Origin: an uncultured Lachnospiraceae bacterium
Lineage (GTDB): Bacteria; Bacillota; Clostridia; Lachnospirales; Lachnospiraceae
DNA length: 64,000 nt
Direction: 5' to 3'
NCBI GenBank assembly: GCA_947382645.1
Contig: CANDAE010000010.1
Location: forward strand, 52,097 to 116,096
Below are positions 2,854 through 16,644 of this stretch, piece after piece. Each line of letters starts with the position of its first letter. Position 1 is the stretch's first letter. A program made the translations under genes and the position numbers. The notes below the pieces were generated by a model that searched no databases, was not told the origin of the DNA, and saw nothing but the letters and a program-made list of their open reading frames with translations.

Positions 2854-2864
2854 TTTTTCCTCCA

Positions 2865-2986
2865 TGCGGAGCTGTTTTTGCGAAGGCCGCGAGCCAAATT
2901 TCAAATTTGGCTCTGCGATATTGAGTTTGTGGCTCCGGCACAAACTCGTAGTTGAAAAATCAGCACATCAGTGTGATTTTTCAACC
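2865..2986. repeat. Three-hairpin dispersed repeat, copy 1 (122 bp; MITE-like or structured leader RNA)
   Basis: Matches 15800-15922 with 6 substitutions and 1 indel. Inverted repeats: gagccaaattt/aaatttggctc, gagtttgtg/cacaaactc and gttgaaaaatca/tgatttttcaac. Confidence 0.9.
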
Positions 2987-3086
2987 TTACTCCCATCTGC
3001 TCCTTTTAACAGGCACTTAAATACTCCCTTGTTATATTTTAACAAATTAGTCTGATAAAATCTATAGCTTCTTATTAATTTCCTAC

Positions 3087-14970: not shown

Positions 14971-15783
14971 TTATAGAGAGGTTGCATCTACTGCCCATGC
15001 AAGGGCTTTATTAATGTGTCCGTTCCATATATACCACTCGTGGGTGCCCGGTGTTTCTTCATAGTAAAAAGATGCGTTTTCTTTTTTTAAAAATTTGTTA
15101 AGCGCCCTGCTGTGTTCCAGCACAAAGTCCTCTGTTCCGCAGGTCAGATAAATGTCAGGAATTTCTTCTTTGTCTTTTTTCAGCCTTTGATAAAGTATTT
15201 CCAGGTTTACCTCTGACTGCAGTAATTCTTTTGGCGAACCAAACATGGTGTTACAATAATCCTTCGTCATGCCATTCTCAAGAAAGAAATTTTTCTGTTC
15301 ATTGTAACCATAGCATACAATTCCAGGCGCCATAGATAAAATCTTACTGAATGTTTTATGGTTGCGCATTCCCAAATACAGGGCGCCAAAGCCTCCCATT
15401 GAAATTCCACCGATAAAGGTATCTTCTCTTTTGTCTGATACTGCCCGAAAGGTATCCCTTGTATAGTTTACGAATTCTTCCGCCACAAATTGTTCATAAT
15501 AAGCTTCTCGTTTTTTGCTGTCAAGGTAAAAAGAATTTTCACCTGCCGGCATAAATGCAGCTACATTATATTTAAGGCAAAAAGTTACAATCTGTGTGTA
15601 ATGAAGCCAGTCCGTGTGTCCTCCTGAATAACCTGACAGAAGATAAATTGTCTTCATTGGTCTTTTGTAACATTCGGAAATGCACTCGGGATGAACTGCC
15701 GCCCCATCTGTGGGTAAAATTCCTGTTGCAGGCACATAACGCCCTAATTTTTCAGAATAAAAATTAAATTCAAAAACTGCCAT
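14971..15783 (-). CDS. Alpha/beta-hydrolase esterase (acetylesterase/EstA-like)
   Basis: Nucleophile elbow GGISMGG, plus CGTEDF and GTHEW. Confidence 0.88.
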   Translation of the reverse strand: MAVFEFNFYSEKLGRYVPATGILPTDGAAVHPECISECYKRPMKTIYLLSGYSGGHTDWLHYTQIVTFCLKYNVAAFMPAGENSFYLDSKKREAYYEQFVAEEFVNYTRDTFRAVSDKREDTFIGGISMGGFGALYLGMRNHKTFSKILSMAPGIVCYGYNEQKNFFLENGMTKDYCNTMFGSPKELLQSEVNLEILYQRLKKDKEEIPDIYLTCGTEDFVLEHSRALNKFLKKENASFYYEETPGTHEWYIWNGHINKALAWAVDATSL

Positions 15784-15799
15784 TTATTATTTTCCTCCA

Positions 15800-15922
15800 T
15801 GCCGGAGCTGTTTTTGCGAAGGCCGCGAGCCAAATTTGAAATTTGGCTCTGCGATATCAAGTTTGTGGCTCCGGCACAAACTCGTGGTTTAAAAATCAGC
15901 ACATCAGTGTGATTTTTAAACC
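15800..15922. repeat. Three-hairpin dispersed repeat, copy 2 (123 bp), flanked by 10-bp direct repeats ttttcctcca
   Basis: Near-identical to 2865-2986. The 10-mer ttttcctcca occurs at 15790-15799 and 15923-15932. Confidence 0.9.
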
Positions 15923-15978
15923 TTTTCCTCCAATTCTTTTGTATAACTTCTATAAGCCAAACCCAGTCTGCCCTGATT

Positions 15979-16644
15979 TTAAAAACCACTCTCCTGCCAA
16001 TTGCCGTCTGCAGCAAGAGAAAAAATATCCGAAAACTTATGTATTGGATAATCTGTTTTCTCATAAGCTGCTGCATCACCAAGTCCGGCACAGGGAAATC
16101 CTCCTGCTATAGCCGCATCTATTCCAGATCTGGCATCCTCTACTACCAGACACTGCCCCGGTTTACATCCCAAATATTCTGCTGCCTTTAAGAATACTTC
16201 TGGCGCCGGCTTTGAGCGACTAATATTATTTCCGTCAGAAATTGCATCGAATATTTCCAGCAATCCAATTTTCTCTAAAATAAAACGCGCATTTTTGCTG
16301 GAAGAGCCGATTGCTATCCCTATGTTTCTTCTTTTCAGCTCATTTAATGTCTCTGCTACCTCCTCTGAAACATCTTTCGGTGACATTTGGCAAAGCAGAT
16401 TTCTGTAAATATTATTTTTCTTTTCTGAAAGCTTCTGTTTTTCTTCTTCTGTCATATTTCCCTGATATTGTTCCAAAATGATCTCAAGACTTTCCATCCT
16501 GCTTACGCCTCTTAATCTGTCATTAATGGCTTCATCAAAATATACTCCAATTTCATCAGCAATCTGCTTCCATGCCATATAATGATATTTGTCCGTATGG
16601 CAGATCACTCCGTCCAGATCAAAAATTATTCCTTTATACTGCAT
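15979..16644 (-). CDS. pgmB: Beta-phosphoglucomutase (HAD)
   Basis: Motifs FDLDGVI, LRGVSRMESL, SKPAPEVF and VVEDA. Directly follows a GH65 gene. Confidence 0.92.
   Translation of the reverse strand: MQYKGIIFDLDGVICHTDKYHYMAWKQIADEIGVYFDEAINDRLRGVSRMESLEIILEQYQGNMTEEEKQKLSEKKNNIYRNLLCQMSPKDVSEEVAETLNELKRRNIGIAIGSSSKNARFILEKIGLLEIFDAISDGNNISRSKPAPEVFLKAAEYLGCKPGQCLVVEDARSGIDAAIAGGFPCAGLGDAAAYEKTDYPIHKFSDIFSLAADGNWQESGF

Follow-up and report, generated by a model that had tools for sequence, protein, structure and literature searches.

Probable recent insertion of a structured Lachnospiraceae repeat at the Shine-Dalgarno sequence of an esterase gene

Introduction

How does a gene come to carry its Shine-Dalgarno (SD) region twice, with hairpin-forming DNA in between? 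The question is raised by the junction of a pgmB-like gene and an esterase gene in an uncultured Lachnospiraceae bacterium, within a stretch of 64,000 nucleotides (assembly GCA_947382645.1, contig CANDAE010000010.1, positions 52,097 to 116,096 of the forward strand) that we call the window and by whose positions we number. An initial annotation, made from the letters alone, had read the junction as the second of two copies of a miniature element that targets ribosome-binding sites (RBSs) and duplicates its target. Here, we compare this copy with its counterpart elsewhere in the window, with orthologous junctions in relatives and with further members of the same family.

Results

A 123-nt element lies between two copies of the esterase SD region

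All genes of the pgmB-esterase region are on the minus strand. The pgmB-like ORF (15979-16644) stops 46 nt short of the distal repeat of copy 2, and the esterase-family ORF (14971-15783, 270 aa) starts 10 nt past the proximal GGAGG. On the plus strand, ttttcctcca at 15790-15799 recurs at 15923-15932, and the sense (minus) strand thus reads TGGAGGAAAA both times; the coordinates bear out the perfect repeat that had been annotated at the two ends. Between the repeats are 123 nt (15800-15922) in which no ORF is found, giving the sense order ...AAGAAT-TGGAGGAAAA-(123 nt)-TGGAGGAAAA-TAATAA-ATG. The features of this copy and of copy 1 are as follows.

15781-15783, minus strand: ATG start codon of the esterase; homologues in relatives use the same ATG
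15790-15799, minus strand: gene-proximal direct repeat TGGAGGAAAA of copy 2, holding the working SD (GGAGG, 15794-15798); single in the empty site of relatives
15800-15922, minus strand: inserted element of copy 2, 123 nt; missing in strains with 98% identical flanks
15800-15808, minus strand: 3' tail of copy 2, GCUCCGGCA, complementary to the hairpin-2 loop, with an anti-SD-like CUCC inside
15817-15824, minus strand: pyrimidine 'b box' of copy 2, GGCCUUCG, with CCUUC, just 3' of hairpin 3
15824-15853, minus strand: hairpin 3 of copy 2, CGCAGAGCCAAAUUU-C-AAAUUUGGCUCGCG; covariation
15858-15884, minus strand: hairpin 2 of copy 2, with the loop CCGGAGC at 15868-15874; covariation
15886-15922, minus strand: hairpin 1 of copy 2, GGUUUAAAAAUCACAC...GAUUUUUAAACC; carries a compensated U-A for G-C
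15923-15932, minus strand: distal direct repeat TGGAGGAAAA of copy 2, now a redundant SD copy
2855-2996, minus strand: copy 1, of the same family, before a methyl-accepting chemotaxis protein (MCP) gene (1129-2853)
2855-2864, minus strand: proximal repeat of copy 1
2865-2986, minus strand: body of copy 1
2987-2996, minus strand: degenerate distal repeat of copy 1, ATGGGAGTAA

The complementarity annotated between the hairpin-2 loop and the 9 nt just 5' of the SD is exact: TGCCGGAGC (the loop and two stem bases) is the reverse complement of the tail GCTCCGGCA, which stands directly 5' of TGGAGG. A scan of 15650-16100 with a sigma-70-like consensus revealed no promoter-like or terminator-like site in copy 2.

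Copy 1 is 95% identical to copy 2 over 122 nt. Its distal flank, ATGGGAGTAA, is degenerate and its tail is short by one G (GCTCC-GCA), both as annotated. The tail deletion (window 2865-2873) is specific to this strain, GCA_021769385.1 keeping an intact GCTCCGGCA there (L168:1160-1200). A TTG-started frame of 604 aa (1129-2943) runs through copy 1, and one 86% homologue in the protein database is 605 aa long instead of 574.

Close relatives carry an empty site with a single SD

An esterase homologue 98% identical to that of the window occurs on 22 contigs from separate samples and in one NCBI assembly. The ten of these contigs that we inspected all lack the element and carry a single TGGAGGAAAA, reading ...AATTGGAGGAAAATAAAAAATG, that is ...GAATTGGAGGAAAATAAAAAATGGCAG..., ...TATACAAAAGAATTGGAGGAAAATAAAAAATGGCAG...; the two flanks match the window at 98.1% (2.8 kb) and 98.4% (2.5 kb) identity. 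The orthologous pgmB-esterase spacers of near-identical strains thus hold the empty site that the initial annotation had predicted. On the relative, the alignments of the two flanks share 10 nt, so the window has gained the 123 nt together with a second TGGAGGAAAA. Orthologues at 86-87% and at 76% protein identity likewise lack the element and have one SD. From these comparisons, insertion in the lineage of the window, and recently, is the parsimonious reading. In the spacer past the proximal repeat (15781-15789), the window has TAATAAATG and all ten empty-site contigs have TAAAAAATG, a single substitution adjoining the insertion.

Hairpin 1 of copy 2 reads GGTTT...AAACC, as against GGTTG...CAACC, and this compensated pair is unique among the copies of the genome; the donor of the recent insertion is therefore absent from the assembly. 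Copy 1 is present in two relatives (L168 and L169) and missing in a third (L170), at 90% protein identity. Copy 1, with its tail intact, is found in a relative assembly whose esterase site is empty; copy 1 therefore predates the split between the two strains, and copy 2 postdates it. The native site that matches copy 1 in the 90% relative (GGGGGTATTAAAATG) resembles the distal flank, unlike the proximal repeat.

At other loci, the copy at oppC is missing in relatives at 92% protein identity, and a relative at 97% has a remnant there. The element is found at none of 80 dnaJ loci from metagenomes, none of which has alignable spacers. A second clean empty site was not found: atpD and yqeY gave only filled contigs, identical to the window's own genome over the region compared, and the only relatives with empty MCP (90%) and oppC (92%) loci are too distant to decide the matter. 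A clean, near-isogenic empty site is thus available for one insertion only, copy 2.

Both copies belong to a multicopy family spread across Lachnospiraceae

A 29-nt core pattern matches the window twice and none of 100 shuffles. The genome to which the window belongs (3.7 Mb, 61 contigs) gave 33 BLAST matches and 30 hits with a covariance model built from 15 copies, or about 30 copies in all. They form three subfamilies, whose hairpins differ by compensated changes, along with truncated forms, and copies before unrelated genes are 93-96% identical over 135 nt. Other forms in this genome have insertions in hairpin 3, lack hairpin 3, are truncated at the 5' end or are mini copies of about 30 nt.

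Spread beyond this genome was counted by a pattern scan of one genome per species, with the pattern constraining the hairpin-2 loop. It returned at least 119 stretches from about 75 assemblies, and stretches from about 75 other genomes, mostly Lachnospiraceae, hold at least 132 copies (88 + 44) by the model. Carriers among the matches listed are Acetatifactor, Roseburia, Eisenbergiella, Kineothrix, Lachnospira, Parablautia and Cuneatibacter, as well as a few other Clostridia. The plasmid and phage collections gave no match to the element, and a literature search with its own sequences returned no paper. Rfam gave only sub-threshold matches for copy 2, among them Spd-sr07 at 37 bits (threshold 55), and no family at gathering score for 10 further loci with copies.

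In the mini copies, the start of hairpin 1 is joined to the tail (GTTGAAAAATCA followed by GCTCCGGCATGGAGG). A second type of derivative, in which the start of hairpin 1 is joined to the spacer (GGAGGAAAGGTTGAATAAAAATG), recurs at several loci. Such mini derivatives or remnants lie at the following positions (the first three in contigs of the window's own genome, G000).

C53:3365-3390, mini derivative or remnant
C2:97407-97432, mini derivative or remnant
C44:23549-23695, mini derivative or remnant
L253:575-603, mini derivative or remnant

Deletion at A-rich microhomologies, or excision that left a footprint, may account for them. A BLAST match on contig C44 that had seemed confined to hairpin 1 proved to be a mini copy (hairpin 1, tail and SD) before a transporter gene of the other strand.

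A second, shorter repeat module, GGTTGAATAAAAATGCGTATTCAACC-TATTGATTTG-CACGCGCGCAGCAGCGCGC-AGATGGGTATAA, occurs at L003:1430-1498 (G000 contig C13:36342-36410). It comprises two hairpins, shares its first 8 nt with the main element and has an SD-like end, ATGGGTATAA. One main-type copy follows the module directly, and another (the copy in L007) precedes it; because it adjoins main-type copies in this way, the family looks modular, like BOX elements.

Copies abut start codons in a single orientation

Among the matches listed, copies share the orientation of the gene that follows them without exception, and end ...GCUYCGG-(A/C)A-UGGAG(G/A)-N4-6-AUG. In other genomes, 111 of the 127 copies listed have an ORF of at least 60 aa within a few nt, the start of the ORF falling at exactly +1 of the model end in 78 of the 127; of the other 16, most likewise show an ATG at that point. 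In the window's own genome, 30 of 31 copies listed precede an ORF. The downstream genes are unrelated to one another (atpD, dnaJ, aroQ, proC, argC, rdgB, yqeY, ybaK, MCP, ABC transporters, esterase), and most copies lie 0-65 nt past an ORF of the same strand, that is, inside operons. Multicopy, and abutting both SD and start codon, the family answers to the initial description of an RBS-targeting miniature element; what had looked like a target-site duplication may instead be a shared recombination core.

The distal junction is very often marked by TAA or TAG directly before hairpin 1 (for example TAAGG, window 2985-2989), and TGA occurs in the first 9 nt of the hairpin. At several copies in the window's own genome, the stop codon of the upstream ORF falls exactly at the distal junction. 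Where an SD falls within the 3' end of the gene upstream, it could in this way be targeted with the loss of only a few C-terminal residues. At the other end, CATGGAGGAAAAAATG places an in-frame ATG 12 nt ahead of the real start in many copies (MEEKM...). We considered a leader peptide, reading ATG GAG GAT AAG ... or beginning with TTG/GTG at the start of hairpin 1, and rejected it, as frames and lengths differ between subfamilies.

Flanking repeats fit a shared core as well as duplication

The initial annotation had called for the flanks of all copies to be tabulated. In the 86 copies that could be parsed, good repeats of 8-10 nt are present in about 20, with distal and proximal sequences matching at 8 or more of 9-10 positions; in many others the two sides disagree and the proximal one hardly varies. 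Several copies have atypical repeat pairs of their own: TGAGGTGTA/TGGGGTGTA in L051, GAGGACA in L082, GGGGATA on both sides in C51 and CGGGGAG in C27. True flank pairs score above pairs permuted within subfamilies (mean 0.88 against -0.08 +/- 0.20; 0 of 1000 permutations). Many canonical copies combine a variable, native-looking distal flank with a near-constant proximal TGGAG(G/A)..., and left and right repeats are discordant in many of them (L033, L079, L138, L140). With the proximal repeat near-constant and the distal one variable, a staggered-cut duplication is indistinguishable from a shared recombination core.

A complete tail from another copy is found in some distal flanks, evidence of tandem insertion; tandem copies have one repeat common to the adjoining units. 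The element has no terminal inverted repeats (TIRs), as its two 25-nt ends agree at 7 of 25 positions, against a shuffled mean of 9.2. Simple staggered-cut duplication does not fit all copies. Judged by their sequences, the copies fit staggered-cut duplication of a preferred TGGAG..., recombination through a short core common to the end of the element and its target, or homology-guided insertion.

Three hairpins and a loop-tail pairing covary across subfamilies

The sense strand of copy 2 has a predicted folding energy of -57.6 kcal/mol (z = -6.05). The antisense strand folds nearly as well (z = -5.2), as expected of hairpins. In an alignment of 88 copies outside this genome, pairing holds in 95.1% of cells, a count that includes related copies. 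Changes on both sides are seen in 32 of 44 pairs, which 0 of 500 shuffles match and from which slid controls are far off, with independent events fewer than cells. In hairpin 3, double changes affect 9 of 10 pairs and three pairs of a basal extension.

The loop-tail pseudoknot, a 7-bp pairing of the CCGGAGC loop with the GCUCCGG tail, had been left out of the covariance model, and the search pattern constrained the loop only. This helix is 94.3% paired, and its variable pair is G-C in 49 copies, A-U in 20, G-U in 12 and A-C in none (counts that include related copies). The hairpins overall show G-U (76) about as often as A-C (69), from which resident copies seem to decay neutrally, the fold being selected in propagating lineages. 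By these comparisons, the three hairpins and the loop-tail pairing are kept through compensatory changes between subfamilies.

The minimum free energy fold of copy 2 prefers an alternative 13-bp helix that reaches into the SD. Since hairpin 2 itself covaries, the pseudoknot is favoured over this helix. The initial annotation had allowed for either a pseudoknot or an alternative fold at the RBS: the pseudoknot is upheld by covariation across subfamilies, and the covariation of hairpin 2 speaks against the alternative-fold switch.

The insertion is predicted to alter SD accessibility

Insertion has left the distance from SD to ATG unchanged and a redundant SD copy upstream of the element. In nested-structure predictions for the empty allele, four of the five SD bases are unpaired with probabilities of 0.85-0.99, and the first G with 0.02. 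For the filled allele, such predictions, whose models leave the pseudoknot outside, give 0.17-0.88, and the value is predicted to fall below 0.05 if the pseudoknot takes up the tail and the SD pairs with the CCUUC box. On these models, the element leader probably lowers the accessibility of the SD, or makes it dependent on the fold, relative to the empty allele. The CCUUC of the b box is anti-SD-like and might, as a weak prediction, pair with either GGAGG. A closing helix of the distal repeat with the b box gives only a weak copy-specific signal (7 of 300 permutations), and the proximal SD gives none (65 of 300). The redundant distal SD could compete for the CCUUC box.

Discussion

We consider it probable that copy 2 arrived recently, as an insertion of a structured, non-autonomous interspersed repeat of Lachnospiraceae whose family enters SD regions a few nt ahead of start codons, in one orientation only. 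Under the mechanism that we propose, propagating (master) copies would need the fold, with a trans-acting enzyme recognising them in folded, single-stranded form, while individual resident copies would decay neutrally. A single-stranded folded intermediate, as in IS200/IS605-type elements, would explain why the fold is kept in master copies only. For integration, the target SD would have to resemble the sequence around the element's own 3' end (TGGAG...), which would account for repeats that are perfect at matching targets and mismatched elsewhere. In mRNA, the element would form a highly stable leader whose two anti-SD-like boxes, CUCC (tail) and CCUUC (past hairpin 3), would stand beside the SD. 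A more specific version, which we think doubtful, has the element homing to SDs by nucleic-acid guidance: anti-SD boxes (CUCC; CCUUC/CCUCC) would pair with GGAGG targets in the folded single-stranded intermediate and, once resident, boxes and pseudoknot would regulate translation in portable form, open to exaptation by the host.

Three other explanations have to be weighed against insertion by such an element. If the element were ancestral at the pgmB-esterase junction, the 'empty' sites would be precise deletions between the 10-bp direct repeats. Recombination between such repeats can excise the intervening DNA exactly, and deletion derivatives of the family exist (mini copies, the L253 remnant). 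Yet relatives at each of three nested distances (protein identities of 98%, 86-87% and 76%) are empty with one SD, and to empty ten of ten inspected contigs from separate samples by repeated precise deletions is far less parsimonious than one insertion; we regard an ancestral element as very improbable indeed. A host leader RNA is unlikely, if less extremely so. By this account, a cis-acting regulator (riboswitch-like, thermosensor-like or a platform to which a global regulator of translation binds) is kept before a regulon, the pseudoknot is its switch, and mobility is incidental or nonexistent. The position of all copies 5' of genes and in their orientation, the strong covariation of the hairpins and the loop-tail pseudoknot, the anti-SD-like boxes beside the SD and the alternative 13-bp helix into it would all suit such a regulator. 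Instead of the coherent gene set expected of a riboswitch-type leader, however, copies 93-96% identical over 135 nt precede functionally unrelated genes; their presence differs between strains with 98% identical flanks, 0 of 80 orthologous dnaJ loci have one, and G-U about equals A-C in the hairpins, so that structure is not purified at resident loci. Nor does the element match any Rfam family. A role as leader RNA is compatible with insertion of a mobile repeat only as a secondary, exapted one.

The remaining explanation concerns how copies spread. Homologous recombination or gene conversion at SD-like microhomologies, or template switching during replication, could have moved them with no dedicated transposition enzyme, the 10-bp repeat being the microhomology. 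A near-constant proximal and native-like distal repeat, the absence of TIRs, tandem copies with one repeat between units and internal deletions at A-rich microhomologies are all in keeping with this, but microhomology alone leaves unexplained why the orientation is strictly single, why the 5' junction always falls on the first base of hairpin 1 and why three hairpins are kept by compensatory change across many genera. We hold this route to be improbable, and prefer insertion of a structured element recognised through its fold.

So far as we can tell, the family, its wide spread in Lachnospiraceae and the direct evidence of insertion at an SD with regeneration of the site are new. Among described elements, Neisseria REP2 and the Borrelia IR sequences, compared here by description, come nearest, followed by the TD-1 and TD-2 motifs. 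REP2 and Borrelia IR-A/IR-B are RBS-bearing repeats without TIRs that lie immediately upstream of ORFs (PMC3184786). Like the Lachnospiraceae element, REP2 is 120-150 bp long, present in tens of copies, free of TIRs and built of internal stem-loops, and adjoins ORFs to which it supplies an RBS. However, REP2 is described as bringing a promoter and the ATG as well (PMC3184786), whereas in the Lachnospiraceae element no sigma-70-like promoter is found and the ATG is the gene's own. REP2 has two stem-loops, in contrast to three and a pseudoknot here, and the taxa are unrelated; the two are set apart by description. The review that treats REP2 describes no SD duplication or empty site (PMC3184786). 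TD-1 and TD-2 (the latter Rfam RF03162, clan CL00124) are confined to one spirochaete species, Treponema denticola, and TD-2 overlaps the reverse complement of TD-1 (PMC1950547). They too are multi-hairpin motifs with tens of copies per genome, TD-1 usually lying 5' to a wide array of genes (PMC1950547). The paper on the TD motifs mentions neither a link to the SD nor insertion polymorphism (PMC1950547). TD-2 is the best sub-threshold structured match to the plus strand of copy 2, at 34.6 bits against a gathering score of 48.7, and copy 2 is not a member.

The element is short, non-coding, multicopy, intergenic, structured and probably co-transcribed with its neighbours, as are MITEs and the Correia, RUP, BOX, ERIC and bcr1 repeats, some of which modulate expression. 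Copy 2 is MITE-like in its flanking direct repeat and presence/absence polymorphism. Of the features by which MITEs are recognised, the element is small, non-coding, multicopy and polymorphic for presence, but has no TIRs; it differs from MITEs and similar repeats also in its one orientation, its fixed position at the start codon and a repeat that is the SD itself. In palindrome-associated elements derived from IS200/IS605, and in REPIN/RAYT systems, hairpins rather than TIRs define the elements, and insertion is orientation-specific, by way of a short target motif recognised with internal sequence. These elements make no duplication, and their end hairpins are alike; those derived from IS200/IS605 enter 3' of a fixed target of 4-5 nt, with a Y1 HUH transposase in the genome. 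In the Lachnospiraceae element, by contrast, the three hairpins are unrelated in sequence, and the left flank, though SD-like, varies.

The filled and empty alleles can serve as strain-level markers and as a natural experiment on leader structure and translation. The family also bears on gene calling: its ATGGAGGAAAAAATG ends make in-frame upstream ATGs that mislead gene callers, and false N-terminal extensions are possible. Small interspersed repeats are widespread among bacteria, and one that lands precisely on the SD and regenerates it would show how a selfish element can enter operon junctions and the leaders of housekeeping genes (atpD, dnaJ, aroQ) with expression spared, and would give gut Lachnospiraceae a natural means of rewriting translation-initiation regions gene by gene.
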